Below the pieces are notes generated by a model, which saw only the letters and a program-made list of their open reading frames with translations, ran no database searches and was not told the DNA's origin. Source: Polynucleobacter sp. JS-JIR-5-A7 (GTDB lineage: Bacteria > Pseudomonadota > Gammaproteobacteria > Burkholderiales > Burkholderiaceae). From it: a stretch of DNA of 32,000 bases. The DNA is taken from positions 2,115,031 to 2,147,030 of the forward strand of contig NZ_CP061308.1 in NCBI RefSeq assembly GCF_018687935.1, given 5' to 3'. Position 1 is the stretch's first letter, and the number at the start of each line of letters is the position of its first letter. The translations under genes were made by a program, and so were the position numbers. Positions 2,508-28,174 of this stretch are shown here, one piece after another.

Positions 2508-2592
2508 AACAAATAAAAACCACCCGAAGGTAGTTTTAGTGAATCTTGGTGGCCCGGGGCGGAATCGAACCACCGACACAAGGATTTTCAAT
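2508..2592 (-). repeat. direct repeat: terminator-like hairpin plus 46-nt 3' portion of tRNA-Phe (att-like site)
   Basis: 2544-2592 tcttggtggcccggggcggaatcgaaccaccgacacaaggattttcaat is identical to 25834-25882 of the intact tRNA gene. It is preceded by a degenerate copy of the ccacccgaaggtgg hairpin. Confidence 0.85.
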
Positions 2593-2686
2593 TCTTTTTA
2601 CAGGATTAATACTGACTCTTGATATTTCCCTTTTGAGCCAATTGTGGAAACATTTCGGCTGCCAACTCCAGAACAATCTTGATGCC

Positions 2687-3361
2687 TTATTTTGGAATAA
2701 TTGGACTATTTGGATCTTTTGGCATCGAAGGAGCTGGGTAACCCGCAGCATGGGAAAACTTAACAATGCCTGGAATCATTTCCTTAGCCAATCCTGAATA
2801 TACTGGCAGCAGATTATTCAAATCCGGCGCCTTATATTCTGAAACTGGTCGCGCGACTGGGGTAGGCCATGTACTTGGATCGCAAGGGGTTGTCCGTATG
2901 AAGCAAGGCTCATGCGTTCTCACACTGGCATCACAGGCAGTAAATGGTTTGCCAAGATTCTATGCTTTACGCAAACTCGCAATCATAGAGGTATCACGGA
3001 ATTCTTTAGCGAATACTGTCTTCCCAGGAATCCATGACAAAATCATTACCACAAGAACAAGATAGCCAGATCTGCGGAAATCAAATCTTTGTTGGCCTTT
3101 TGGCACTGATGGATCTGGAGCAGGAACCAATGGAGGTGGCACGCGATCATAAGTTCCACCCGGCTCATCCCAACCAAGAAAAAAGTGTTGAGCACATTAG
3201 ACCCTGCCCGTGTTGTTGACTCGTTTAAGACGAGCGAACAGTTCTTTTAGTCTTTTAATCTTCGCTTTTTCAGTTGTAGGTAGTTTAAATAGAGCGGTAG
3301 CATCTTGAACTTGCTTTGCTGGCTGTAATTTCTTTTTGATTTCTTCTAATGTAGATGACAT
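2687..3361 (-). pseudogene. decayed gene of unknown product: one 225-codon frame with two in-frame stops
   Basis: A 54-aa ORF (3361-3197, MSSTLEEIKKKLQPAKQVQDATALFKLPTTEKAKIKRLKELFARLKRVNNTGRV) and the track ORFs 2960-3142 and 2687-2923 all lie in the same frame. They are separated only by TAA at 3197-3199 and TAG at 2960-2962. A weak P-loop-like SWIPGKTVFAKEF is present. Confidence 0.3.
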
Positions 3362-3399
3362 TTACGAAAAATCAGTTAAAGTTCGCACATATATTATGC

Positions 3400-5103
3400 T
3401 TAAAGCTTTGCTACTAGTGCGTGCCCTCCAATAATCTCTCTATTTGTAAAATGATCCCAAAACTTAAAGTTATATACATTAGGATCTCTAAACATCTTAA
3501 TTTGAAATCCAATAGACAAGTCTTCCAGCGGCAAACCCTGCTCAAAAACCCCTTGAAGACTACCCTGTCTAACTCTCAGGAGTTCAATATTATTTCTAGT
3601 ATGCTTCCTCAACATATCAATAACCTGAGAATCTAATTTTTTATCAATATCAATAATTGAAGACCCTCTGCCTTCTTGTGAAAAATTTACAACTAAAGCT
3701 GTATTTTCAAAATTTGAAAAGTCATCATTAGAGGGAATTATTACTATTGTTAACTTATCAAAAAAAGAAGCACTAAGAAATTTTTCACCAAGAATAAGTA
3801 ATTTTTTAGAAATAAAACCTTCCGCATCTGAAGAAAATTTTGTAATTTCTTCTTTTACGTATTCTTCATCAAGAAAGTAAAGTGGGGACTCATATTGCTC
3901 TAACTTATTTAAATCTTTTCCAAAAATATTTAAACGTGAAGTTTCTATTGGGTTAATTCCAATAACTTCAGGAAAGGTAGCCTCTACATATTGTATAAGG
4001 TCATCTGGAGAGTTTTTGATATTAATTCTTTTTACATCTAAATCTCTATTTATTTCTGTAAAGTATCCGGCGTATGGGATAACGAATTTTGGCATAGTTG
4101 CCGCCACTAATTTTTTTACGTAATGTGTAAGTACCGAATTTCTGTTTGCGTTTGCTATTTCAATTTTTTTCTGTAAATCAAAATTTTCAATCCGAGAAGG
4201 AAAAGCGCTCGCCCCACCTGCAAAGAGAGTAAAAAGCATATCTACTTTTGGTAAAACCCAGTTGTTAGGCATATTTGTGTCTACCCCAAAAAAAATAACG
4301 TTTTCTTTAGTGTAGACAAGCAAAGAGCTGTCATCCCTATCATCGCCTGATTTAACAATAATTAGCTTTATACTTTCATCTTTATTTATGGTCACCTCCT
4401 CAAGGAAATCAGCAATAATTAAGTTGTTATATCCTAATTTTCTTAAAATAGTTTCAACTGACTTTGATTCAAAGTTTGGCACTAAAAAACACTTGTCTTT
4501 TGATACGTATTTCTCAAGCGTAGGAATGTGTAGGTGATCTGAATGATTATGACTTATGTAGATTAAGTCGGCATTTACAAGTCTATCTACTGCCTCAACA
4601 CTTGGCGGATATAAGTGCCACCATCCTGTAGCAAAACAAGGTCCAATGTACCAAGGGTCTGTGATTATCGAAATGCTGCCAGCCACTAAAGATACTGAGG
4701 CGTGAGCATTGAAATCAATTCTTATCTCACCACCATAAAGCATTTCACACGGCACTAAAGGAAAAGACTCATCTTCCTTTAGTACACATAGAATATTTTC
4801 TTTATCTACTACCTTTAGTTGTTTCTTTGGACAGGCGTTTTCATATACTCCTTCACTAAGCAATAGCGTCCATTTATGAATTGGGCAGGTTGCTGTTTTT
4901 TTACCTGGATCAAGCGATAAATTACCTCCGTTATGATCACAAATCCTATCATAAGCAACCCATTCGCCTTTGACCTTACCCAGAAAAAATTCAGCGTGCT
5001 CTGTAAAACTTTCCTCTTTTGGCTTTTTTATTTCATAGCTAATAATTTTTTTTGTATTTTTTAAAAAAACATTCTTCTGGATAGAAATAATATCTGGATT
5101 CAT
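3400..5103 (-). CDS. Rieske [2Fe-2S] + metallo-beta-lactamase-fold monooxygenase resembling CMP-N-acetylneuraminate hydroxylase (CMAH)
   Basis: Probable ATG at 5103 (MNPDIISIQ); the track start at 5118 is TTG. Rieske motif CDH-x15-CPIH. MBL motif YISHNHSDHLH. Blocks DPWYIGPCFATGWWHLYPPS, ADLIYISHNHSDHL, FAGGASAFP, IPYAGYFTE and IGFQIKMFRDPNVYNFKFWDHF match my recollection of vertebrate CMAH. GC is about 30 percent in sampled lines. Confidence 0.8.
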   Translation of the reverse strand: MNPDIISIQKNVFLKNTKKIISYEIKKPKEESFTEHAEFFLGKVKGEWVAYDRICDHNGGNLSLDPGKKTATCPIHKWTLLLSEGVYENACPKKQLKVVDKENILCVLKEDESFPLVPCEMLYGGEIRIDFNAHASVSLVAGSISIITDPWYIGPCFATGWWHLYPPSVEAVDRLVNADLIYISHNHSDHLHIPTLEKYVSKDKCFLVPNFESKSVETILRKLGYNNLIIADFLEEVTINKDESIKLIIVKSGDDRDDSSLLVYTKENVIFFGVDTNMPNNWVLPKVDMLFTLFAGGASAFPSRIENFDLQKKIEIANANRNSVLTHYVKKLVAATMPKFVIPYAGYFTEINRDLDVKRINIKNSPDDLIQYVEATFPEVIGINPIETSRLNIFGKDLNKLEQYESPLYFLDEEYVKEEITKFSSDAEGFISKKLLILGEKFLSASFFDKLTIVIIPSNDDFSNFENTALVVNFSQEGRGSSIIDIDKKLDSQVIDMLRKHTRNNIELLRVRQGSLQGVFEQGLPLEDLSIGFQIKMFRDPNVYNFKFWDHFTNREIIGGHALVAKL

Positions 5104-5119
5104 CAAAAAAATTTCCAAG

Positions 5120-6343
5120 TTATGTCAATCTGTATGCTTCCATCGTCGCAGTGAGCTTACTGTAGTGTCGCTCAATCATTCCGGCACTATTACCCATCTG
5201 CTTCGCAAGCGTGTGAATATCTATTCTATATTCTATAAGCTCCAATGTAGCATAAGTGTGTCGCAATGAGTACAAAGTGCGTGTCTGTCCTTCTGCGTCT
5301 TTTTCTAATCCGCTATCACGCATTAGCCGTCTAAAAGTTCCATTCAAACTCGGCGGTTGATAACCATTACTAAATGTAAAAAGTTTATGTGCTGTGCGTT
5401 CTTTAATAAATTGCTCAAACTCAATACCATTGTGCGATTGCTGTCTGTTGTGTAGTCGCTTTAATACATCTACAGCGCGATGCTTTGCTATCAACCATCT
5501 ACCGCCCGTTTTACCATTCACCCATATGCGTAAGTAGCGTATGTCTTTGTCTGTGTGCCACTCAATGTGCTTCCAACTAATGCCTAATGCCTCTGTGCCG
5601 TGTCGCATTCCCGTTAGCAATAGCATCTCTACATAATCACGCAGTAGCGGACGCATCTCACGCTCTACAGCTAATCTCCCCTTCATACTTCACTTCACCA
5701 TATACACAAGCAGATGCTCTATCTCCTCCCTGCTAAATGCTGGGCGAGCGATACTCTTTAGTCCTCGTGTTGATAGCTTCGGTATCGCAACACGCTCGCT
5801 AATCCAACCTCTACTGACAGCAACGCTACACAATCTACTCCACGCACTCGCAAGGTTATTCAGCGTGCTTGCTTTAGGCAACTTCGCCATCTGTCTATTT
5901 CGCCATAACTCAAACTCTACGATGTCGCTGTGCGTGAGCTCCTCTAACTGCTTGTCCGCAAAGTACGGAATGAAATACTTTTCTATACAAGTTATATACG
6001 ATTGATACACGCTCTTTCCTCTACCCAAGTCCATCTCTTTGCGTAGCTCATCTAATGTTGCGTCTGCGATGTGTGCGAAGTCGTGTGATATGTGTGCTAA
6101 ACCCAGTCGCTGTCTAAAGCGTATCTCGTCGTACATCTCGCACGCAACACTATCGGCACTTTCAACACTCGCTTTGCGCGTGCTGACTCTGTACCAACTG
6201 CCGTTGGCTAACTTAAAGCGACATTGATATAGCGGACTGCTACTGCGACGATACAAAACAACTTCGCTATCACGCAGATACAGAATGTTGGGGTTAGATG
6301 TGTAGTGTGCTGTGAGTAGTCGTAGATACCTTGCGAGTGTCAT
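5120..6343 (-). pseudogene. int: tyrosine integrase inactivated by a single in-frame TGA (paralogue of the 15269-16543 integrase)
   Basis: Track ORFs 5690-6343 and 5120-5686 are in the same frame, with TGA at 5690-5692. LLVYMVK*SMKGRLAVEREMRPLLRDYVEMLL aligns with LLEFMEPWIKQGRLEIEHETRPLLRDYIEMLL of the intact paralogue, so the stop replaces a Trp codon. The catalytic RHTYAT...HY region is retained. Confidence 0.85.
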
Positions 6344-6468
6344 TACACAAAGTTAAACAGCGTGTTGCTAAAGTGCGGAGAGCGTAGATTATTTTTACGC
6401 ACGCAAAGAGCAAAAGTTTGTACAAGCACAAAAGAAAACACCGCAGTCTTTCGACTACGGTGTATATA

Positions 6469-6545
6469 TGGTGGCCCGGGGCGGAATCGAACCACCGACA
6501 CAAGGATTTTCAACTCTGTCCCCCAGACTAAACTCCCGCTAGATC
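6469..6545 (-). repeat. tRNA-Phe 3' fragment (45 nt identical) continuing into a diverged pseudo-tRNA; att-like site next to the dead integrase
   Basis: 6469-6513 tggtggcccggggcggaatcgaaccaccgacacaaggattttcaa equals the 3' end of the intact tRNA. The continuation ctctgtcccccagactaaactcccgc only loosely resembles the D arm and cannot pair as an acceptor stem. It has its own hairpin plus T-run at about 6438-6466. Confidence 0.8.
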
Positions 6546-6756: not shown

Positions 6757-7428
6757 CTATAAACCTCTTGTATAGCTCTTGTTATCTTTTGGCTCAACTA
6801 GAGCAAGAATTCCAACAACCAATAATGCCGCAATGACCTCAGCCACAACAAATCCTAAAACATCATTAGGAGCAATGCCCACAAAGGTATTGGTTAAGCT
6901 CCTTGCTACTGCTACTGCTGGATTGCTAAAGAAGGTAGAGGAAGTAAACCAGTAGCCTGCTGTCACTGCCAAAGCAACTAACATTGGAACCTTATCTTTA
7001 GCCTCTTTATCTCCAATGTGTATTACTGAGAGCAATACGAGTGTTGATACAAGCTCACTCACCCAAATACCTAATCCTGTTCTGACTTTGGTTGATTCTT
7101 GAATAATGGGCAAGCTGAACATTAAATGGGTGAGCCATATTCCAGCAATAGCGCCTGTGAACTGGCAAACCCAATAGCCCAACATCTTTTTTAGATTGAG
7201 ATGTCCTAACTTCCAAAACATCAATGTGACAACTGGATTAAAGTGGGCGCCAGAGATGGGTCCGAGCAAAACAATTAAAGCGTAGAGTCCTGCGCCTGTA
7301 GCAATGCTATTACCAAGTAAGGCAACTGCGGCGTTGCCTGCTCCCAATGATTCACCCATAAAGCCAGACCCCGCCACTATTGCTAATAGCAGGGCTGTGC
7401 CCACAAACTCACTTACATAACTTTTCAT
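6757..7428 (-). CDS. aqpS: MIP-family aquaglyceroporin in the ars operon (AqpS-like arsenite channel)
   Basis: 223 aa and hydrophobic. Two NPx boxes (HFNPVVTL and FSNPAVAVAR). The ATGA overlap with the arsC stop indicates translational coupling. Confidence 0.8.
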   Translation of the reverse strand: MKSYVSEFVGTALLLAIVAGSGFMGESLGAGNAAVALLGNSIATGAGLYALIVLLGPISGAHFNPVVTLMFWKLGHLNLKKMLGYWVCQFTGAIAGIWLTHLMFSLPIIQESTKVRTGLGIWVSELVSTLVLLSVIHIGDKEAKDKVPMLVALAVTAGYWFTSSTFFSNPAVAVARSLTNTFVGIAPNDVLGFVVAEVIAALLVVGILALVEPKDNKSYTRGL

Positions 7429-7904
7429 GCTTTTGTATGAATCTCTTTTAGGCTCATTGAATCTAATTTGTCTAAAGGCATAGATGCCAAGATATCGATA
7501 CGCTTTTTCAAACCAATCATCACATCCTTAAATGCTTTGCGTTTTTCTTCATCACCACCTTGAACTTGTGATGGATCAGGAAAGCCCCAGTGAGCTGTAG
7601 AAGGTTTGCCAGGCCAAAATGGGCATACTTCACCCGCGGCATTATCACAAACAGTAATAATGAAATCCATTTGTGGAGCATCAGGCAAGCCATACTCATC
7701 CCATGACTTAGAGCGCAACTTATTCTCGTCGTAGCCCATCTCTAAGGCTAACTCTCTAGCAAAAGGATTAACAGATGTACCTGGGGTAGAGCCAGCTGAG
7801 TAACCAACAAACTTACCACTTAGATGGGTTGATGCTAATGCTTCACCCAATACAGAGCGGGCGGAGTTATGGGTACACAAAAAGAGAATGTTGTATTGCT
7901 TCAT
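7425..7904 (-). CDS. arsC: arsenate reductase, LMW-PTPase/thioredoxin-coupled type
   Basis: Start reset to MKQYNILFLCTHNSARS (ATG 7904-7902), overlapping the arsR TGA (7903-7901). CX5R(S) P-loop, plus the downstream Cys pair VCDNAAGEVC. Confidence 0.9.
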   Translation of the reverse strand: MKQYNILFLCTHNSARSVLGEALASTHLSGKFVGYSAGSTPGTSVNPFARELALEMGYDENKLRSKSWDEYGLPDAPQMDFIITVCDNAAGEVCPFWPGKPSTAHWGFPDPSQVQGGDEEKRKAFKDVMIGLKKRIDILASMPLDKLDSMSLKEIHTKA

Positions 7905-8230
7905 TTGATTTTGGCTTTCTTGAGGGGTTTGATGGGAAGGCAAGACTTACCGCCACAGCAGTTATCTAATAAAAATTCACTTAACTTTTGAACTTGCTCG
8001 GCATTAGGTCTATAGATGAGATTACGACTTTGACGCTCTACCAATAAAAGCTCGGCATCCACTAAATCTTTTAGGTGAAAACTGAGGGTGGCATTGGGGA
8101 TGCCAAGTTTTTCAATAATTTGACTTGGAGTTAACCCAAGGTCACCACGCTGAACAATGAGGCGAAACACATTAAGTCGGGTTTCTTGCCCTAGAGCGAG
8201 GAAAGCAGAGATAGCGTTATCATTATTCAT
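7901..8230 (-). CDS. arsR: ArsR/SmtB-family metalloregulator
   Basis: 109 aa. Winged-HTH region (QETRLNVFRLIV...TPSQIIEKLGIPNATLSFHLKDL). C-terminal Cys cluster DNCCGGKSC. First gene of arsR-arsC-aqp. Confidence 0.9.
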   Translation of the reverse strand: MNNDNAISAFLALGQETRLNVFRLIVQRGDLGLTPSQIIEKLGIPNATLSFHLKDLVDAELLLVERQSRNLIYRPNAEQVQKLSEFLLDNCCGGKSCLPIKPLKKAKIK

Positions 8231-8252
8231 ATTTCGAATTATATGGAAATAT
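8229..8252. promoter_or_regulatory. candidate ArsR operator in the divergent arsR/arsH intergenic region
   Basis: Inverted repeat ATATTTC-n10-GAAATAT within the 93-bp AT-rich gap between the arsR start (8230) and the arsH start (8324). Confidence 0.3.
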
Positions 8253-8323
8253 ATGACAGTTTTATGAAATCTCGTTTCTAATAGACTCTCTTAATAATTT
8301 CACCTTTAAATTAGTATTCATCC

Positions 8324-9034
8324 ATGACTGATCTACCCAATATCGATAAAGCCCTATTTCATAAGCCAAGTCTTGATGAATTAACCATCAACTCCATTGA
8401 TAGTCACCCACCTAAGATTTTGCTTTTATATGGATCACTTAGAGAGAGGTCATTTAGTCGCCTTCTGGCAGAAGAAGCAGAAAGAATATTAAAAGCGATG
8501 GGCTGTGAAACGCGATTCTTTAATCCTCATGGATTGCCGCAAGTGGATGACGCTCCTGAAACACATCCCAAAGTAGTAGAGCTAAGAGAGTTAGTTCAAT
8601 GGGCAGAAGGAATGGTGTGGAGCAGTCCTGAGCGACACGGAGCTATGACAGGACTAATGAAATCGCAGATTGATTGGATCCCACTTAGCGTTGGCGCTGT
8701 CAGACCCTCTCAAGGCAAGACTCTTGCTTTATTACAAGTGAGCGGTGGTTCGCAATCTTTTAATGCTCTCAATCAAATGCGAATTCTAGGTAGATGGATG
8801 AGGATGATCACAATTCCAAATCAATCGTCAGTGCCCAAAGCATTTCTAGAGTTTGAGGATAACAATCGCATGAAACCTTCGGCCAATTACGATCGAGTAG
8901 TTGATGTCATGGAAGAGCTGGTTAAATTTACTTTGCTAACTAGGTCAGTTTCAAGCTATTTGACTGATCGCTACAGTGAGCGAAAAGAAAGTGCTGAGGA
9001 ATTATCAAAGCGGGTTAATCAAAGAGCTATTTGA
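8324..9034 (+). CDS. arsH: arsenical resistance protein ArsH (NADPH-dependent FMN reductase)
   Basis: 236 aa with [22 protein letters not shown] and [22 protein letters not shown], typical ArsH blocks. Divergent from arsR. Confidence 0.9.
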
Positions 9035-10355: not shown

Positions 10356-11094
10356 CTTTTTCTCCTATAAGTGAATGGGCACACTTAATTTATTGTCAGA
10401 GTTTTTGGATGGACAACCTCTTTTTGCCAAAAGCCACAAAGATCTAATAAATTTGCCAATAATGCGCCTTCTTTTATTAGGTTTCACTAAATAACTATGA
10501 CGACAAAACAGAAGAACGTTTTGTATGCCATTACATTACTACCGAAACAAGAGCAGTGACACTCAGTCGTTATGTCACCCTAAAGCTGGACTAGGAGTCA
10601 CAGTCATGGAAATTCTGGGCGGTAGCAGAGACTTAATTCACTATCCTTAACCGGACGCCATTAGCCTTGCTGACTAATATGAATCAAGTATACGAATTAG
10701 CACAAAGATCGTAGAACATTGTTTTACGGATCACGAGAAAGCCCTGCTTACACAGCAACTTTCAAACAAGACAAGGGTAGCCACTTATTGCTTTTGTCAT
10801 TGTTGCGTTTCAAGCCGCACATAAAAGGAGACAGCGAAACCGCCCTTCCCAAACTGGTTGTGCCCATAAGTGGTGTAGTAAAGAACTCAGCGAAAGTCCT
10901 TTTCTATTACTGAGCCTGTTGCTTAAGGCTCAGTGTAGGTTGAATCTAGCGAAAGTCCATCAAACAACATCAGATCAGCATTAGAGAAGAAGAAATGTGA
11001 TGAGCGACAAGCGAAATCACAGGGGAACGTAGTTCGCCTTTACTCAATAACAACTATCAAAATTTATATTAAAGTATTGAAAAAGGAGGGAATT

Positions 11095-15268: not shown

Positions 15269-16543
15269 TCAAGCCAACCTATCTGCCGCCATCGTTGCCG
15301 TCAACTTGCTGTAGTGACGATCAATCATGGCGGCACTATTTCCCATCTGCTTGGATAGCGTGTGAATATCAGTCTTGTTCTCTAGCAACTCCAAAGTGGC
15401 GTAGGTATGTCTAAGTGAATAGAGTGTTCGCATCTGCCCATCATGACTTAATCCCAAACCACTATCTCGCATCAATCGCTTAAATGCGCCATCAATCCGC
15501 ATAGGCTGATGACCATTGGCAAAAACAAAGATCCGCTCTGGTGCTCTTGTCTCAAATAGACGATCAAAGGGAATATCCCACACGGCACGTTGCCTACTGT
15601 GTAATCGTTTGAGCACATCTACTGCCTTATGTTTGGCAATGAGCCAACGCCCACCCGTCTTGCCATCCACCCATATACGTAGGTATTTCTTATCGCCTTG
15701 GGTATGCCACTCAACGTTGTTCCAGCAGATATTGAGTGCCTCAGTGCCATGCCGCATGCCTGTGTATAAAAGCATTTCAATATAGTCACGCAGTAGAGGG
15801 CGAGTTTCATGCTCAATCTCTAATCGGCCTTGTTTAATCCATGGCTCCATAAACTCCAATAAGCGATCAATCTCTTCACGAGTGAACGCTGGGCGGGTTT
15901 TACCTTTTTGCCCTCTAGCTGTGAGTTTTGGAATAGCTACTCGTTCGCTGATCCAACCCTTGCTAATGGCTACCAGCTGTAACTTAGTCCAAGCACTGGC
16001 AAAATTCATAAGGGTGCTGGCTCTAGGCAACTTATTCATCTGCCTATTACGCCAAACTTCAAACTCATGCACGTCTGTATAAGTTATTTCTTCTAGTCTT
16101 TTGTCACCAAAGTAGGGTAGAAAGTATTTCTCAATACAGGTGATGTAGCTACCGTACACGCTCTTGCCTATACCCACATCCAAGTCCTGCCGCATTGAGT
16201 AGAGAGTGGCGTGTGCAATTTCTGCAAACGTGGGCGACTTTTGCGCAAGCCCCAGTCTTTGGCGAAATCTGGTTTCATCGTAAAGATCGCATGCCATTCG
16301 TACTGCATGTTCAATACTGGCTTGGCGGGTGGTCTGACGATGCCATGAACCATCTTGCAGTCTAAAGCGGCAATGCCAAAGTGGACTTCCGGGTCTGCGG
16401 TGAATAACTACTTCGCCATCGCGTAAGTAAAGCTCTGTGGGCTCAGCGTATTTGAGCTGGCTTAAGGCTGTGGGCTCGGATTCTTGCTGGGGTGATGAGA
16501 TTACTTCTAGGTGACTTTCAAGTACTTTGATTACCTTAGTCAC
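15269..16543 (-). CDS. int: tyrosine-type site-specific integrase, intact (424 aa)
   Basis: C-terminal catalytic region RHGTEAL...LYSLRHTYATLELL...MGNSAAMIDRHYSKL (R...HxxR...Y). An N-terminal SAM-like/arm region is present. It looks strongly similar by eye to the broken integrase at 5120-6343. Confidence 0.9.
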   Translation of the reverse strand: MTKVIKVLESHLEVISSPQQESEPTALSQLKYAEPTELYLRDGEVVIHRRPGSPLWHCRFRLQDGSWHRQTTRQASIEHAVRMACDLYDETRFRQRLGLAQKSPTFAEIAHATLYSMRQDLDVGIGKSVYGSYITCIEKYFLPYFGDKRLEEITYTDVHEFEVWRNRQMNKLPRASTLMNFASAWTKLQLVAISKGWISERVAIPKLTARGQKGKTRPAFTREEIDRLLEFMEPWIKQGRLEIEHETRPLLRDYIEMLLYTGMRHGTEALNICWNNVEWHTQGDKKYLRIWVDGKTGGRWLIAKHKAVDVLKRLHSRQRAVWDIPFDRLFETRAPERIFVFANGHQPMRIDGAFKRLMRDSGLGLSHDGQMRTLYSLRHTYATLELLENKTDIHTLSKQMGNSAAMIDRHYSKLTATMAADRLA

Positions 16544-19141: not shown

Positions 19142-19167
19142 TTCCTAATAATGGGTCGTCTGAAGGT

Positions 19168-19275
19168 TTAGTGATAAACAATGTCAGCACGATAGTTTTC
19201 TTTAAATACCGCTTCTGTCTAAGATAGGTTGGCTGGCTTTTCTTTTCCATAGCTCACGGCTTTAAGCTGAGCATG
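19168..19275 (-). pseudogene. internally deleted remnant of a Pal/OmpA-like gene
   Basis: 19168-19272 aligns well by eye, with scattered mismatches, with the last roughly 105 nt of 22317-22808. 19273-19300 aligns with the start codon and upstream region at 22806-22835. About 0.4 kb of the middle is missing. Confidence 0.65.
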
Positions 19276-19357
19276 GTGGGGTTTCCCAAACATAGCTAAA
19301 CGTTAGTAGCTATATGGCAAATGAAAACGCCACTATGACAAACCGAACCTAAAAATA

Positions 19358-19711
19358 TTAGGCTGTAGCTTTGGGTGGTTTAAACGCTGAGTCAGGAAAG
19401 TTTTGCGAAAACAAAACTTTATTTGCTATAGCAAATTGAATTGGGGTCTTGGGTAGGGAAAAAACGGTTATTCCAGCCTCGCTAATGTTTGCAGTCACAT
19501 GACTCATTAGATGCATGGTGTGAACCTGATGCTTATCGGTGAATGACCCAGCACTCTCATACGACTGCTGTGAGATTGGTACATTGGCATAAGAGCTATC
19601 AATCTGCGCTCGCTCTATTGCGGCTTGAATAAAAATACTTCCAGCGGCCAGCTTAAATGCGATCATGAAGAGGCAAATGAATAAAACGAGTGTTTTACTA
19701 CGAGGCAACAT
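19358..19711 (-). CDS. small secreted protein, FKPP(R/K) C-terminal family, paralogue A
   Basis: 117 aa. The N-terminal 36 aa and C-terminal roughly 20 aa are almost identical to 22895-23248, while the centre is diverged. Ends SAFKPPKATA. Confidence 0.65.
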   Translation of the reverse strand: MLPRSKTLVLFICLFMIAFKLAAGSIFIQAAIERAQIDSSYANVPISQQSYESAGSFTDKHQVHTMHLMSHVTANISEAGITVFSLPKTPIQFAIANKVLFSQNFPDSAFKPPKATA

Positions 19712-19741
19712 GGTTCAAATTCTATACCTGATTACTAAATT

Positions 19742-19804
19742 TGTCGTTTTAAATGACATCGACTGACGCAGGGATGAATAATGGATTTGTCCTTTTAAAG
19801 GACA
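19742..19804. repeat. bipartite repeat, copy 2: H1 variant TGTCGTTTTAAATGACA + linker atcgactgacgcagggatgaataat + P-box copy 9 (19789-19803, right-extended ...GGACagttcatg)
   Basis: Aligns with 9041-9103. The H1 part sits about 30 nt upstream of the start of paralogue A. Confidence 0.9.
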
Positions 19805-19889: not shown

Positions 19890-19920
19890 TTTCTTGGTGG
19901 CCCGGGGCGGAATCGAACCA
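19890..19920 (-). repeat. 31-nt direct repeat of the tRNA-Phe 3' end and flank (att-like site)
   Basis: tttcttggtggcccggggcggaatcgaacca is identical to 25832-25862. The next roughly 35 nt (…ccctagactac) resemble the sequence that follows the 25159 copy. Confidence 0.75.
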
Positions 19921-22299: not shown

Positions 22300-22316
22300 T
22301 GAATAGCCTTTGAAGT

Positions 22317-22808
22317 TTAGCGATACACAAAATCAGCGCGGCGGTTTTCTTTAAATGCCGCTTCAGTTTGCGCTGGGTCAGCTGGCTTTTCTTTGCCAAA
22401 GCTCACTGCCTCTAGTTGAGACTCACTAACACCTTGAGAAACAAGCGCTTTCTTAACAGCTTCGGATCGCTTTTGGCCCAAGGCTAAGTTGTACTCAGCG
22501 GTTCCACGATCATCGGTATTACCTTGAATAATGACGGATGCCTTTTGCCTTTGAAATGCTTTCAAGTACGAAGCATGGGCAGAGATAGTAGAGGCATATT
22601 TTGGATCTAATGTATAGCTATCAAACTCAAAATAGATAGAACGCTTGCCATAAACGCTAGACTTAGAATCGCTGATTGGATCATACGACATTGAGCCGCC
22701 AGCGTTGATAGTAGCAACACTATTAGCATCATCTAACTTAACGCTACTACAGGCGGAAACAAATAAAACCAATAATGCCAATGGCAATATTTTTATAAAC
22801 TTAAACAT
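22317..22808 (-). CDS. peptidoglycan-associated lipoprotein (Pal/OmpA C-terminal domain)
   Basis: Start reset to MFKFIKILPLALLVLFVSAC (lipobox). OmpA_C blocks: IYFEFDSYTL, GNTDDRGTAEYNLALGQKRSEAV and ENRRADFVY. Confidence 0.85.
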   Translation of the reverse strand: MFKFIKILPLALLVLFVSACSSVKLDDANSVATINAGGSMSYDPISDSKSSVYGKRSIYFEFDSYTLDPKYASTISAHASYLKAFQRQKASVIIQGNTDDRGTAEYNLALGQKRSEAVKKALVSQGVSESQLEAVSFGKEKPADPAQTEAAFKENRRADFVYR

Positions 22809-22894
22809 GATGGAATTTCCCAAATACGGCTGAATAGGCTCAGCCATGCTATCAATAGGATTGATCTTATTTAGACCAATCCCAACCAAGTAAA

Positions 22895-23248
22895 TTAGGT
22901 GTTAGCTTTGGGTGGTTTAAATGCTGAGTCGGGGAAATTTTGCGAAAACAAAACTTCATTAACGATAGAGAACGAAGCCACTGCAATCGATGGAGAGAAA
23001 ACGGTAATTTCAATTTCGCTAATATTAGCTGTTACATGGCTCATGAGGTACATGGTATGAACCTGCTCTTTGTCGTCAGCTGAGTCAGAGCTATTATGTG
23101 CTTGCTGTGACATTGAAGCATTGCTGTAGCTACCAGCAAGTTCTGCCCGCTCTATTGCGACTTGAATAAAAATACTTCCAGCGGCCACCTTAAATGCGAT
23201 CATGAAGAGGCAAATGAATAAAACGAGTGTTTTACTACGAGGCAACAT
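22895..23248 (-). CDS. small secreted protein, FKPP(R/K) C-terminal family, paralogue B
   Basis: 117 aa. See 19358-19711. Ends SAFKPPKANT. First gene of a tight minus-strand operon running to 19956. Confidence 0.65.
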   Translation of the reverse strand: MLPRSKTLVLFICLFMIAFKVAAGSIFIQVAIERAELAGSYSNASMSQQAHNSSDSADDKEQVHTMYLMSHVTANISEIEITVFSPSIAVASFSIVNEVLFSQNFPDSAFKPPKANT

Positions 23249-23278
23249 GGCTCAAATTCTATACCCGATTACTAAATT

Positions 23279-23295
23279 TGTCGTTTAAAACGACA
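23279..23295. promoter_or_regulatory. H1 palindrome TGTCGTTTAAAACGACA upstream of paralogue B (candidate operator overlapping a -35-like element)
   Basis: Same position relative to the start codon as the H1 copy upstream of paralogue A. On the minus strand ACGACA-n18-TAGAAT lies just before the ATG. Confidence 0.4.
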
Positions 23296-23665: not shown

Positions 23666-24889
23666 TTAAACCGCTGTGACTTTAACAGTCTCAACAATAT
23701 TACGCATATAGCCAGCCGGCATCCAACTTGCGGTCATGGGCTGAACTTGGCCGGCATGATTAAATGCCCTAACCCTCAAGTCCAATGTCCCTTTTTGTTT
23801 TGGCGTAAATTCAATGCGCCACTCTCTAAATGAGAAACGACCCAGATCTTGGCCCAATCTTGCTTCTGTCCAATTTTGTCCATTGTCCTGAGAGAACAAA
23901 ACTTTCTTTATTCCATAGCCAGCATCAAAGGCAATGCCTCGAGCTTGAACGGGCTTACCAACAGTAACAACACTATTGTCTGTGAAGTTCGTAATGAAAG
24001 AGCGAATCGTAAATTGATTAATTGGAATCGTTTTAGAAGGGGCAGTTCCTGGCGCAACACAGTTACAGTCATTATCAGGAATGCGATAAGCAGGATTCAT
24101 CCAATAGCCGTTGTATACATCATCAACCACTTTAATTTCACTAAGATGTTTTACCCAATAAGTGCCGTAATAGCCAGGCACAATTAACTTGATTGGATAA
24201 CCATTTAAGAAAGGAATATCTGTTCCATTCATTTGATAGGCAACCATGACATTGCCATCCATGGCGTGATCAATATCTAAGCCTTTTACGAAATCTGAAT
24301 CACTTGGCAATACTGGCTGATCTAAGCCATCAAAGGTCACTTGCTTGGCGCCGCGACCAGGATTGGCCGCCTTCAAAATATCCTTTAAGGCAACGCCAAC
24401 CCAAGCGGCATTACCCATCGCACCATTACCAAGTTGACCACCATTCACTCTAGGTTCAAACAAGCCACGACTGTTACCAGAGCATTGATTAACAGCAACA
24501 ATGCGTTGAGATGGAAAGTTTTTCTTTAAAGACTCTAGGGAGATCTCCAAAGGCTTTTCTACATTGCCGCCAACTTTTAATCTATAAGTATTAGGGTCAA
24601 TGGATGTTGGAATCCCGGCCATGTGATAACGCACAAAGAATTCATCGTTTGGCGTAATGACATGATTGTCGTAATACTTAAATGGGGTTTCTAATTGCGG
24701 CGGCCTAGAAGTCAATACAATCATGGGCTTCTTTTCAGGAAAGACCATGAGTTCGCGCTCACCATAGGCTATCGGTAAATTTATTTTCTCTGCTCCCATT
24801 GCCCAGGATGGCAATAATGAACTGGCTCCACCAGCCAAGGCCGCTGTAATGACTTTACGTCTATTGGTAAAGTTTTCTGAATTCATCAA
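23666..24889 (-). CDS. sorA: molybdopterin-dependent sulfite dehydrogenase catalytic subunit, SorA-like
   Basis: Twin-arginine signal NRRKVITAALAGGAS. Mo-ligand Cys context VNQCSGNSRG. Sulfite-oxidase-family size (407 aa), followed by the cytochrome c gene. Confidence 0.85.
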   Translation of the reverse strand: MMNSENFTNRRKVITAALAGGASSLLPSWAMGAEKINLPIAYGERELMVFPEKKPMIVLTSRPPQLETPFKYYDNHVITPNDEFFVRYHMAGIPTSIDPNTYRLKVGGNVEKPLEISLESLKKNFPSQRIVAVNQCSGNSRGLFEPRVNGGQLGNGAMGNAAWVGVALKDILKAANPGRGAKQVTFDGLDQPVLPSDSDFVKGLDIDHAMDGNVMVAYQMNGTDIPFLNGYPIKLIVPGYYGTYWVKHLSEIKVVDDVYNGYWMNPAYRIPDNDCNCVAPGTAPSKTIPINQFTIRSFITNFTDNSVVTVGKPVQARGIAFDAGYGIKKVLFSQDNGQNWTEARLGQDLGRFSFREWRIEFTPKQKGTLDLRVRAFNHAGQVQPMTASWMPAGYMRNIVETVKVTAV

Positions 24890-25158: not shown

Positions 25159-25186
25159 TTCTTGGTGGCCCGGGGCGGAATCGAAC
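25159..25186 (-). repeat. 28-nt direct repeat of the tRNA-Phe 3' end and flank (att-like site)
   Basis: ttcttggtggcccggggcggaatcgaac is identical to 25833-25860. It is preceded by its own 9-bp-stem hairpin (aatagccca...tgggctatt) with a T-rich tail on the minus strand. Confidence 0.75.
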
Positions 25187-25220
25187 AGGGGCCTCAGGAA
25201 ATTCTCATCCTACCCCTAGA

Positions 25221-25441: not shown

Positions 25442-25720
25442 TTAATAAGCTTTTGACTCTCTAGGGGTTGCCTTACGAGCCGAAATAATACGAACGACAT
25501 TACCCTCGCTTCGATAGCAATGGCAAACCAAAATCACACGAAGAGAATGGCTTACTCCCAGCAAGATAAATCTTTCTTCACCCTCCGAATGATCGGGATC
25601 GGAAATTAACTTAGCACTTTCATCATAGAACACAGATTTGGCCTCTTCAAAAGAGATGCCGTGTTTCTTTAGATTGGCTGAAGCTTTTCTAGGTTCCCAT
25701 TCAAATCGTAACGAAGTCAT
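25442..25720 (-). CDS. brnT: BrnT-family toxin (DUF497 ribonuclease)
   Basis: Start taken at [27 protein letters not shown] (ATG 25720). The track start at 25735 would place a palindromic operator inside the codons. Confidence 0.8.
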
Positions 25721-25738
25721 ATGTACATTGTACATATA
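25718..25738. promoter_or_regulatory. 21-bp near-perfect palindrome at the brnT start; candidate BrnTA autoregulatory operator
   Basis: catatgtaca-t-tgtacatata (9 of 10 arm positions pair) overlaps the ATG at 25720. Confidence 0.45.
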
Positions 25739-25836: not shown

Positions 25837-25912
25837 TGGTGGCCCGGGGCGGAATCGAACCACCGACACAAGGATTTTCAATCCTCTGCTCTACCGACTG
25901 AGCTACCAGGCC
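25837..25912 (-). tRNA. tRNA-Phe (anticodon GAA), CCA encoded
   Basis: The reverse complement is GGCCTGGTAGCTCAGTCGGTAGAGCAGAGGATTGAAAATCCTTGTGTCGGTGGTTCGATTCCGCCCCGGGCCACCA. It folds as a cloverleaf: 7-bp acceptor stem, GCTC/GAGC D stem, GAGGA/TCCTT anticodon stem with loop TTGAAAA, and GGTGG/CCGCC T stem. Confidence 0.95.
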
Positions 25913-25969: not shown

Positions 25970-28174
25970 TTAACTAGCTGTAGTTAAAGCCTTGGAGCGG
26001 GCAGCATGTAATTTCCTATAGCTGTCGATCAAGCGGTGGTGCCGGTCAAGTCCCTCGAGTTTTGTACTCGTTTGGGTCAGACCGTAAAAACGCAGTGTGC
26101 CATCTACAGAACCCATTACCGCGTCCATCCGCTCATTGCCAAACATACGGCGGAAGTTGACTTCGTAGTCATCAAGCTGCAAATCATCATCTAGCAGAAT
26201 CTCTAGAACTGCATTTAAGGCCTGATAGAACAATTTGCGCTCGACTGTGTTGTCGTTGTATTGAAGGAAGGCGCCTACTAACTCATGTGCTTCATCAAAT
26301 TGCTTTAATGCAAGATGAATTAACAACTTCAACTCCAGAACTGTTAACTGGCCCCAAGTTGTATTTTCATCAAACTCAATGCCAATTAATGTTGCAATGT
26401 CGCCATACTCATCTAGCTCGTTATTTTCTAGACGCTCAAGTAATGCACCCAGTCTAGCGTTATCTAATGTGTGTAGATTCAAAATATCAGCGCGAAATAA
26501 CAAGGCGTTGTTCGTGTTATCCCAAACCAGATCTTCGATTGGATAAACCTCCGAATAACCTGGGACCAATATTCTGCAGGCTATCGCGCCTAGTTCGTCG
26601 TATACCGCAACGTAAGCCTCTTTATTCATATCCTTGAGGATGCCAAACAAGGCCGCAGCCTCCTCAGCATTAGAGCTCTCACCCCGCCCCGAGAAATCCC
26701 ATTCAACAAATTTGTAATCGGACTTTGCGCTGAAAAAACGCCATGACACTATGCCGCTAGAATCAATAAAGTGTTCAACAAAGTTATTGGGTTCGGTCAC
26801 CGCTTCGCTTGAAAAAGTGGGTGGGGGCAAATCATTAAGCCCCTCTAAGCTTCGACCCTGGAGTAATTCCGTTAAGCTTCGCTCCAATGCGATCTCTAAA
26901 CGCGGGTGCGCTCCGAAGGAAGCAAATACGCCCCCTGTTCGCGGATTCATTAAGGTCACGCACATCACTGGATAAACCCCGCCAAGTGAGGCATCCTTTA
27001 TCAACACTGGAAAGCCCTGCTCTTCTAATCCTCGAATCCCTTCCAGAATGCCGGGATACTTAGCCAGTACTTCCTGCGGCACATCGGGTAGAGCAATTTC
27101 ACCTTCTAGAATTTCACGTTTAACTGCACGCTCGAAAATCTCTGATAGGCACTGTACTTGGGCCTCAGCGAGGGTGTTGCCAGCACTCATGCCATTGCTG
27201 ACATAAAGATTTTCAATCAGGTTCGATGGAAAATAAATAGTCTTGCAATCAGATTGACGTACATAAGGTAACGAACAAATACCGCGCTCTACATTGCCTG
27301 AATTCGTATCAATTAAATGTGAACCACGCAACTCACCGTCAGGATTAAAAATTTCCAGGCAATATTCATCCAAAATTTCTGTTGGTAATGCATCATCGCC
27401 ACCCGGTTGAAACCAGCGCTCATTTGGATAATGCACAAATGCTCTATTAGCGATATCCTCGCCCCAGTATGCGCCAGCATAAAAATGGTTGTTGCTTAAT
27501 CGCTCGAGGTATTCTCCTAAAGCAGATGCTAAAGCGCTTTCTTTTGTTGATCCTTTCCCGTTGGTAAAACACATCGGCGAATGTGCATCGCGTATATGTA
27601 AGGACCACACGTTTGGAATAATGTTGCGCCATGAAGCAATTTCAATCTTGATTCCAAGGTTTGCTAACACACCAGACATATTGACAATGGTTTGCTCTAG
27701 GGGTAGATCCTTGCCGGCAATAAAAGTTTTTGCATCGGCAGCAGGCTTTAAAGTCAACAAGGTCTGCGCATCGGCATCCAAGTTTTTAACTTCTTCTATG
27801 ACAAACTCTGGACCGGCTTGCACCACTTTTTTTACAGTACATCTCTCAATGGAGCGTAAAATACCTTGGCGGTCATTGGCAGAAATATCTTCTGGTAACT
27901 CAACCTGGATCTTAAAAATCTGCTGATAGCGATTTTCAGGATCGACAATATTATTTTGTGAGAGACGAATATTTTCGGTAGAGATCTTTCGGGTGTCGCA
28001 GTACAGCTTCACAAAATAAGCAGCGCATAGGGCCGATGAAGCCAGAAAATAATCGAATGGTCCAGGAGCTGAACCATCACCCTTATACCTTATCGATTGA
28101 TCGGCAATCACGGTGAAGTCATCGAACTTAGCTTCAAGGCGAAACTTGTCGAGAAAGTTGACTTTAATTTCCAT
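25970..28174 (-). CDS. OsmC-domain / YcaO-domain fusion protein with a helical C-terminal extension (734 aa)
   Basis: The N-terminal roughly 140 aa are OsmC-like (GSAPGPFDYFLASSALCAAYF). The central region is YcaO-like (NGKGSTKESALASALGEYLERLS, NGMSAGNTLAEAQVQCLSEIFER, PRLEIALERSLTELLQ). Confidence 0.85.
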   Translation of the reverse strand: MEIKVNFLDKFRLEAKFDDFTVIADQSIRYKGDGSAPGPFDYFLASSALCAAYFVKLYCDTRKISTENIRLSQNNIVDPENRYQQIFKIQVELPEDISANDRQGILRSIERCTVKKVVQAGPEFVIEEVKNLDADAQTLLTLKPAADAKTFIAGKDLPLEQTIVNMSGVLANLGIKIEIASWRNIIPNVWSLHIRDAHSPMCFTNGKGSTKESALASALGEYLERLSNNHFYAGAYWGEDIANRAFVHYPNERWFQPGGDDALPTEILDEYCLEIFNPDGELRGSHLIDTNSGNVERGICSLPYVRQSDCKTIYFPSNLIENLYVSNGMSAGNTLAEAQVQCLSEIFERAVKREILEGEIALPDVPQEVLAKYPGILEGIRGLEEQGFPVLIKDASLGGVYPVMCVTLMNPRTGGVFASFGAHPRLEIALERSLTELLQGRSLEGLNDLPPPTFSSEAVTEPNNFVEHFIDSSGIVSWRFFSAKSDYKFVEWDFSGRGESSNAEEAAALFGILKDMNKEAYVAVYDELGAIACRILVPGYSEVYPIEDLVWDNTNNALLFRADILNLHTLDNARLGALLERLENNELDEYGDIATLIGIEFDENTTWGQLTVLELKLLIHLALKQFDEAHELVGAFLQYNDNTVERKLFYQALNAVLEILLDDDLQLDDYEVNFRRMFGNERMDAVMGSVDGTLRFYGLTQTSTKLEGLDRHHRLIDSYRKLHAARSKALTTAS

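Follow-up and report, generated by a model that had tools for sequence, protein, structure and literature searches.

A full-length member of the animal CMP-Neu5Ac hydroxylase family as cargo of a decaying tRNA-Phe islet in Polynucleobacter

The DNA analyzed here (the window) is a stretch of 32,000 nucleotides (nt) from Polynucleobacter sp. JS-JIR-5-A7, in which a small islet delimited by tRNA-Phe fragments carries an intact gene for a protein of 567 amino acids (aa). Judged by its sequence, the protein is a genuine full-length member of the family of CMAH, the animal hydroxylase of CMP-N-acetylneuraminic acid (CMP-Neu5Ac; CMP, cytidine monophosphate). We consider it probable that the enzyme is an O2-dependent hydroxylase, which would convert the N-acetyl group of a CMP-activated nonulosonic acid to N-glycolyl and is carried as a mobile modifier of surface glycans. 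The protein is not of a new kind: the same sequence, with 100% identity, already stands in NCBI as [quoted passage not shown] and homologues from bacteria have been on record since 2015. What is new is the linkage of the family to nonulosonic-acid clusters, its permuted relation to NamH, and a recurrent module of integrase and cargo.

The minus-strand open reading frame (ORF) extends over 3400..5118 with a TTG start, and an ATG at 5103 gives the 567-aa product. The approximate layout is a Rieske [2Fe-2S] domain at residues 39-112, a metallo-beta-lactamase (MBL)-fold oxygenase domain at 125-380, and a C-terminal SCP2-like domain at 385-560. An earlier reading of this DNA (the original prediction) had noticed that a CDH-x15-CPIH Rieske motif is joined to an MBL motif, and both can be read from the translation: C55-D-H57, x15, C73-P-I-H76, which satisfies the family pattern CxH-x15-17-CxxH, and H185-N-H187-S-D189-H190, which matches HxHxDH. 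Pfam agrees, with matches to Rieske at residues 39-90 (E = 1.9e-7) and to Lactamase_B_3 at 129-212. No Pfam match was obtained to a mononuclear iron domain of the Ring_hydroxyl_A or VanA_C type, or to PF25451 (SCP2_Rv3818).

The likeness to animal CMAH extends well beyond these two modules. CMAH of Sarcophilus (P0145) aligned with the window protein in a single collinear BLASTP alignment (query 39-552, subject 38-558, 30% identity, E = 1e-55), as did CMAH of Lepisosteus (P0205; 31% identity, E = 1e-55). The alignment continues through the C-terminal DLSIGFQ...RDP.(V/I)Y..(K/L)FW.HF segment, and it contains, in order, all five blocks that the original prediction had matched to vertebrate CMAH. 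The original prediction stands in nearly all its particulars, with three corrections given below. A mouse CMAH sequence served only as bait by which hundreds of named vertebrate CMAH entries were retrieved; every comparison was made against real database entries. Two word-indexed homology searches, one with the window protein and one with an alignment of distant matches, listed no animal CMAH; both listed many bacterial relatives, many of which JGI names “CMP-N-acetylneuraminate monooxygenase.” Since Pfam recognizes nothing but generic Rieske and Lactamase_B modules, one could still take the protein for a generic MBL-fold hydrolase, or for an ordinary ring-hydroxylating Rieske oxygenase, that resembles CMAH only through common modules. 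This is extremely improbable. The collinear match runs through the C-terminal domain and refutes it, the catalytic domain is of the MBL fold and not of the Ring_hydroxyl_A type, and the family is compact, with 127 clusters at E <= 1e-30 among 1.84 billion representative sequences.

An alignment of 62 bacterial and vertebrate sequences locates the conserved residues of the family. Among the Rieske ligands, H57, C73, and H76 are invariant and C55 is at least 90% conserved. Invariance extends to H134, D149-P-W151, H185, H187, D189, D258, D275, and D354, and conservation of at least 90% to H190 and E350. None of these invariant or near-invariant residues is missing from the window protein. An AlphaFold2 model built on this alignment has a mean predicted local distance difference test score (pLDDT) of 93.3 and a predicted template modeling score (pTM) of 0.91. 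In a Foldseek search it came closest to the MBL-fold non-heme diiron hydroxylases CmlA and FrsH, with NAPE-PLD and UlaG-type proteins next, and CmlA and FrsH are also the top matches in PDB by sequence. According to PDB and the fold search, no solved structure spans the whole architecture of Rieske, MBL, and C-terminal domains. By its similarity of fold, the MBL domain is predicted to hold a diiron centre.

A more remote kinship connects the family to NamH (Rv3818), the UDP-N-acetylmuramic acid (UDP-MurNAc; UDP, uridine diphosphate) hydroxylase of Mycobacteriales, which has been described in the literature as a distant CMAH homologue. Distant tblastn matches on actinobacterial plasmids led to a NamH-like protein of Nocardia, in which the order of domains is MBL (residues 2-176), SCP2_Rv3818 (PF25451; 332-451), and Rieske (467-508). 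Positions 129-547 of the CMAH alignment were matched by hhalign to residues 2-442 of this protein with a probability of 99.2%, and the window protein is 25% identical to it over ~290 residues. Given the hhalign match, the MBL plus C-terminal core is common to CMAH and NamH, and the Rieske module is permuted.

We propose that the N-terminal Rieske [2Fe-2S] cluster would receive electrons from outside, probably from a ferredoxin or flavodoxin system with housekeeping duties, and would hand them to an iron centre held in the MBL-fold domain by the HxHxDH motif and conserved acidic residues. O2 would be activated at this iron, and the N-acetyl methyl group of a nucleotide-activated sugar would be hydroxylated to give the N-glycolyl form. 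The likeliest substrate would be a CMP-activated nonulosonic acid, with CMP-legionaminic acid as the leading candidate for the clade of the window protein and CMP-Neu5Ac as the alternative. The product would probably alter a surface polysaccharide whose genes lie in another part of the genome, so that the gene may act like a serotype-conversion module.

The gene neighborhoods of relatives point to nonulosonic acids. When all ORFs within 10 kb of a CMAH-family gene were clustered at 81 loci, the three commonest families of neighbors were NeuA-like, NeuC-like, and NeuB-like. A CMP-sugar cytidylyltransferase of the NeuA/LegF type was present at 28 of the 81 loci, in 23 cases within 3 kb, and this CMP-sugar synthetase is the single commonest close neighbor; a NeuC-type epimerase was found at 28 loci and a NeuB-type synthase at 24. 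Since the 20-kb span is at most ~1% of a genome, chance alone would give less than one locus with such neighbors. The same association is seen within the clade of the window protein. In P. paneuropaeus (L001), neuA, neuB, and neuC share a polysaccharide cluster with the homologue, which follows ~6-8 kb downstream of them; capsule-type and glycosyltransferase genes belong to this cluster as well. At locus L089, genes of the LegB, LegC, NeuC, NeuB, and NeuD types, all above NCBIfam cut-offs, form one operon-like run that ends at the CMAH gene, and L091 has the same gene set and layout. The one line of support for hydroxylation of CMP-Neu5Ac to CMP-Neu5Gc (Neu5Gc, N-glycolylneuraminic acid) is this linkage to neuA, neuB, neuC, and leg genes in other genomes.

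A methyltransferase-like gene (~233 aa) was found within 3 kb of the CMAH-family gene at 14 loci, mostly directly adjacent and on the same strand. It abuts or slightly overlaps the CMAH-family gene at L017, L032, L034, L040-L042, L047, L048, L051, and L052, with gaps between -10 and 14 nt at most of them and of 521 nt at L017. The arrangement hints at a further modification step, e.g., O-methylation of the new hydroxyl.

The islet on which the window gene lies has the anatomy of a small integrated element (Table 1). The original prediction had described a segment bounded by tRNA-Phe 3' repeats, and perfect 45-nt copies, each spanning the tRNA from the CCA end to the anticodon loop, do flank it. 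Between them (2593-6469), the minus-strand order is integrase (6343..5120), CMAH gene, 54-aa ORF (3361..3197), and ~600 nt free of recognizable genes. The integrase stop is separated from the CMAH ATG by 16 nt, and a nonsense codon in the integrase, also noted earlier, is confirmed by comparison: a TGA at 5690-5692 divides a single frame into the ORFs 5690..6343 and 5120..5686, and at this position both an intact paralogue in the window and a metagenomic copy (L093) have Trp. The paralogue (15269..16543) is above the Pfam threshold for Phage_integrase and is ~65% identical to the islet integrase. A third candidate integrase, the ORF 23666..24889, was rejected as it proved to be a molybdopterin oxidoreductase. 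Pfam and NCBIfam assigned no family to the 54-aa ORF, to the ORFs in 2593-3196, or to the ORF downstream of the CMAH gene in L093, and 2593-3196 gave no tblastx matches to related loci; this segment is probably decayed DNA of the element.

The picture of a single dead tRNA-Phe islet requires one amendment. The repeats and the broken integrase bear out the decay, whereas the intact tRNA-Phe stands 19 kb away and shorter or degenerate copies of its 3' end occur at 1443-1467, 19896-19920, and 25164-25188; the CMAH islet is thus one unit of a tandem array. The tRNA-Phe repeats in the window delimit at least four such islets, and most of the repeats have a terminator-like hairpin next to them. Those at 19896 and 25164 have only ~25 nt in common with the tRNA, followed by another sequence that both share.

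The pairing of integrase and CMAH gene recurs elsewhere. The metagenomic contig L093 (2,993 bp) is collinear with the window over 2.6 kb (5833..3216), with nucleotide identities of 91% in the integrase part, 80% in the CMAH part, and 79% in the next 189 nt, and its CMAH gene, also of 567 codons, starts 14 nt past the integrase stop. The downstream ORF of L093 has at least 173 codons, and the 54-aa ORF of the window, which matches it at 48% identity over 52 aa (tblastn), is therefore a truncated remnant. At L090, a frameshifted integrase of the same family (45% aa identity) lies 26 nt upstream of an intact CMAH gene. No tRNA fragments were found in the related loci. The pair found in the window, L093, and L090 thus represents a recurring mobile unit, and two of its three occurrences, those of the window and L090, combine a decayed integrase with an intact CMAH cargo. 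The CMAH gene is the cargo of a small tRNA-Phe-integrating element made up of an integrase, the CMAH gene, and an ORF of no assigned function; in the window this element is decaying, through the change of Trp to TGA in the integrase and truncation of the downstream ORF, with its cargo preserved.

The tRNA-Phe repeats and the dead integrase support the horizontal acquisition that had been proposed for the gene, and base composition adds little to them. The contrast in guanine plus cytosine (GC) content is real and smaller than the about 30% against mid-40s first claimed, as the CMAH gene has 33.5% GC (25.7% at third codon positions, GC3), the whole window 42.3%, and the adjacent integrase 45.5%. 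Moreover, the genes of the window's CMAH clade (L001, L003, L006-L008, L090, L093, and the window) have 33-37% GC in flanking DNA of 36-57% GC. At L090, for example, the host DNA has 50-57% GC and the CMAH gene 36%. The linked integrase tracks the GC content of the host, unlike the CMAH cargo. Because the clade is low in GC in every host, low GC is weak evidence for the recency of this transfer; we thus rejected it as proof of a recent foreign origin, and it loses the value as a pointer to this transfer that the original prediction had given it.

Several results weigh against an N-glycolylating enzyme for CMP-nonulosonates. Consistent with the original prediction, tblastn and Pfam searches of the 32-kb window found no gene for sialic or nonulosonic acid synthesis (nor did Pfam find a ferredoxin or b5 gene there). 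Within 5 kb of the CMAH-family gene, a motif scan of the 81 loci revealed no ferredoxin-like ORF, and no reductase or other dedicated redox partner is linked at any of these loci. No NeuB occurs within 8-10 kb in the polysaccharide clusters of the closest homologue, L006 (83% aa and 86.5% nucleotide identity to the window gene), or of L003 and L090 (78% and 57% identity to the window protein). A weak consensus scan found no promoter-like site between the terminator-like hairpin 6463..6438, which lies upstream of the integrase, and the CMAH gene. The diiron assignment, as stated above, is based on fold similarity. According to a 2019 review, all known microbes are unable to synthesize Neu5Gc, and our literature searches found no assayed enzyme or functional study for the bacterial CMAH branch.

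The absence of NeuB near L006 and L003 keeps alive the alternative that some members act, with the same fold and chemistry, on another nucleotide sugar, such as a UDP- or GDP (guanosine diphosphate)-linked N-acetyl-hexosamine or 2,4-diacetamido-trideoxyhexose. NamH, acting on UDP-MurNAc, provides a precedent, and its family has the same MBL plus C-terminal core. The clusters of L006, L003, and L090 contain DegT aminotransferases, PglD-like acetyltransferases, and glycosyltransferases, and about 50 of the 81 loci have no nonulosonic-acid gene within 10 kb. Nevertheless, the window protein has the domain order of CMAH and resembles vertebrate CMAH (30% identity over 514 residues) more closely than it does the NamH-like protein; a CMP-sugar synthetase is the commonest close neighbor of the family; and other members of the clade are located inside legionaminic-acid clusters. 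Orphan copies can also use a pathway encoded elsewhere in the genome. For the window protein we therefore regard a different nucleotide sugar as rather unlikely and prefer a CMP-activated nonulosonic acid.

A further alternative is that the gene is, in this strain, an unexpressed hitchhiker on a dying islet, which would have no substrate pathway and no function and be intact only through recent arrival. The dead integrase, the truncated downstream ORF, the unameliorated GC3, and the missing nonulosonic-acid genes in the window would all fit, as would the hairpin upstream of the integrase and the lack of a promoter-like site before the gene. The promoter scan is a weak consensus tool, however, and the scan for promoters and terminators, in which sites were no more numerous than in shuffled sequence, offered no usable promoter for the CMAH gene. 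The ORF itself is of full length and keeps every family-invariant residue. In comparison with L006, the ratio of nonsynonymous to synonymous substitution rates (dN/dS) is 0.18, and the lineage-specific amino-acid changes are balanced (38 against 39), which gives no excess in the window lineage and no sign of relaxed constraint. The decayed integrase beside an intact cargo in L090 also argues for selection on the cargo. We regard a functionless hitchhiker as improbable.

Relatives of the window protein are not the scattered microbial homologues that the original prediction had in mind. An exhaustive HMMER search of the 1.84 billion representatives, clustered at the level of 50% identity, yielded 454 clusters at E <= 1e-10 in addition to the count at the stricter threshold given above, and a scan of GTDB species genomes, one genome per species, yielded 125 matches encoding a relative. 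These belong to Beta-, Gamma-, and Alphaproteobacteria (including Pelagibacterales, Pannonibacter, and Bradyrhizobium), Bacteroidota, Prochlorococcus, Nitrospira, Myxococcota, Bdellovibrio, several gastric non-pylori Helicobacter species, and one haloarchaeon. In a neighbor-joining tree, the window protein falls in a clade of mainly freshwater or betaproteobacterial sequences that are 45-83% identical to it, and the vertebrate CMAHs nest with a different bacterial group. Plasmids contained no close homologue of the window protein, only distant NamH-like and MBL proteins, and phages gave no match.

Among the Helicobacter species, CMAH-family genes were observed in H. cetorum, H. cynogastricus, H. 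baculiformis, H. salomonis, H. labacensis, H. vulpis, and H. bizzozeronii, with two copies each in H. cynogastricus and H. baculiformis. At the Helicobacter loci L031, L033, L069-L073, L076, and L082 they are located away from sugar clusters. Since Helicobacter flagellins bear pseudaminic acid, an N-glycolyl form of it is conceivable.

Microbial CMAH homologues are on record in the relevant passages of Simakov et al. 2015 (PMC4729200), and those of Peri et al. 2018 (PMC5767959) report homologues in two green algae and ~60 prokaryotes. The window protein is one more member of the same family, to which the “CMP-N-acetylneuraminate monooxygenase” entries of KEGG and JGI also belong. In these passages the homologues are given as sequences only, and neither the link to legionaminic- or neuraminic-acid clusters nor the mobile integrase-cargo form is described. 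According to a 2017 paper, N-glycolyl nonulosonates have not been described in bacteria.

Taken by itself, the window yields a gene that is ordinary and already on deposit, in a setting that is of interest. A broader reading, which we put forward tentatively and consider possible, is that integrase and CMAH gene form a self-contained, horizontally circulating cassette by which freshwater bacteria turn the N-acetyl group of surface legionaminic or neuraminic acid into N-glycolyl. If true, N-glycolyl nonulosonates would here be made de novo by a microbe for the first time, and Neu5Gc itself, a major xeno-autoantigen in humans, might be among them. The textbook view that microbes are incapable of making Neu5Gc would then be contradicted, and the cassette would provide a mobile “serotype-switch” gene under selection by phages or grazers. 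With the nonulosonic-acid linkage and the integrase-cargo clade, the question of whether N-glycolyl sialic-acid-like sugars are made by bacteria can be put to the test in Polynucleobacter isolates, which are culturable. A soluble enzyme from bacteria might, moreover, ease the way to solving the structure of a CMAH for the first time and to making CMP-Neu5Gc analogues enzymatically.

Table 1. Features of the CMAH islet and the associated tRNA-Phe copies (positions in the window)
Feature	Position	Strand	Remarks
CMAH-family gene	3400..5103	(-)	intact, 567 aa; Rieske, MBL-fold, and C-terminal SCP2-like domains
tRNA-Phe (GAA), intact	25837..25912	(-)	head of tandem islet array
tRNA-Phe 3' fragment, 45 nt	6470..6514	(-)	identical to 25837-25881; boundary repeat on the integrase side; followed by terminator-like hairpin, 6463..6438
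tRNA-Phe 3' fragment, 45 nt	2548..2592	(-)	identical copy; distal boundary repeat; followed by terminator-like hairpin, 2537..2516
Tyrosine integrase pseudogene	5120..6343	(-)	single frame broken by TGA at 5690-5692
54-aa ORF	3197..3361	(-)	truncated remnant of a longer ORF (at least 173 aa in L093)
Rest of islet	2593..3196	(.)	~600 nt, no recognizable coding content

Other features were observed in the window. The neighboring islet (6757-9034) opens with an arsenic-resistance set consisting of a MIP channel, an ArsC of the low-molecular-weight phosphatase type, ArsR, and an ArsH-like flavin mononucleotide reductase. Between two tRNA-Phe fragments, at 1495-2490, a DUF6803 membrane protein with a His-rich tail is encoded beside a 110-aa His-rich secreted protein, and this segment may be a metal-related mini-islet. 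A BrnT toxin gene (25442-25735) lies in a mini-islet adjoining the tRNA-Phe, and a 734-aa OsmC-YcaO fusion protein is encoded just past the tRNA (25970-28174). The Rfam small RNA Polynucleobacter-1 was identified inside the island region at 10551-10689 (+) with 83.6 bits, in keeping with the Polynucleobacter origin of the identical NCBI protein. The palindrome GTCCTTT(T/A)AAAGGAC occurs at at least nine intergenic sites (6734, 9087, 12610, 13541, 15244, 16617, 18276, 19788, and 25059) and may be a terminator or an element resembling repetitive extragenic palindromes (REP). A segmental duplication (19166-19757 and 22315-23294, 77-81% identity) covers small ORFs with no assigned function.

In comparison with known systems, vertebrate CMAH (EC 1.14.18.2) is the closest in architecture. 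The window protein has the same order of Rieske, MBL-fold, and C-terminal domains and 30-31% identity over ~515 residues, and the Rieske ligands and the HxHxDH, FAGGAS, AGYF.E, and IGFQ..R.P..Y..FW.HF blocks are common to both. The window protein differs in being bacterial, in belonging to another clade of the tree than the bacterial group that nests with the vertebrates, and in being encoded on an integrase islet. Vertebrate CMAH receives its electrons from cytochrome b5 and b5 reductase, whereas no cytochrome b5 gene was seen in the 32-kb window, and the substrate of the bacterial protein is probably a bacterial nonulosonate (e.g., legionaminic acid), instead of or besides Neu5Ac.

Among solved structures, CmlA and FrsH come closest to the catalytic domain. 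They have the HxHxDH metal motif in common with the window protein, but they contain no Rieske domain, their TM-score (template modeling score) over the whole window protein is only ~0.3, and their substrates are amino acids bound to carrier proteins. NamH carries out the same chemistry, the conversion of N-acetyl to N-glycolyl in a nucleotide sugar, contains a Rieske cluster as well, and is homologous in its MBL and SCP2-like core, yet its domains are permuted relative to the CMAH order of the window protein, in which PF25451 is not matched. For the mobile setting, the nearest parallel is provided by the gtr and oac genes of Shigella flexneri phages, which are serotype-converting modules located beside integrases at tRNA sites, also in phage remnants. 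The window islet contains no phage genes, and its enzyme, in the role we infer, would modify an activated sugar and not the finished O-antigen. By analogy, both would represent a glycan-modifying gene that lies directly beside an integrase at a tRNA attachment site and persists after the element has decayed.

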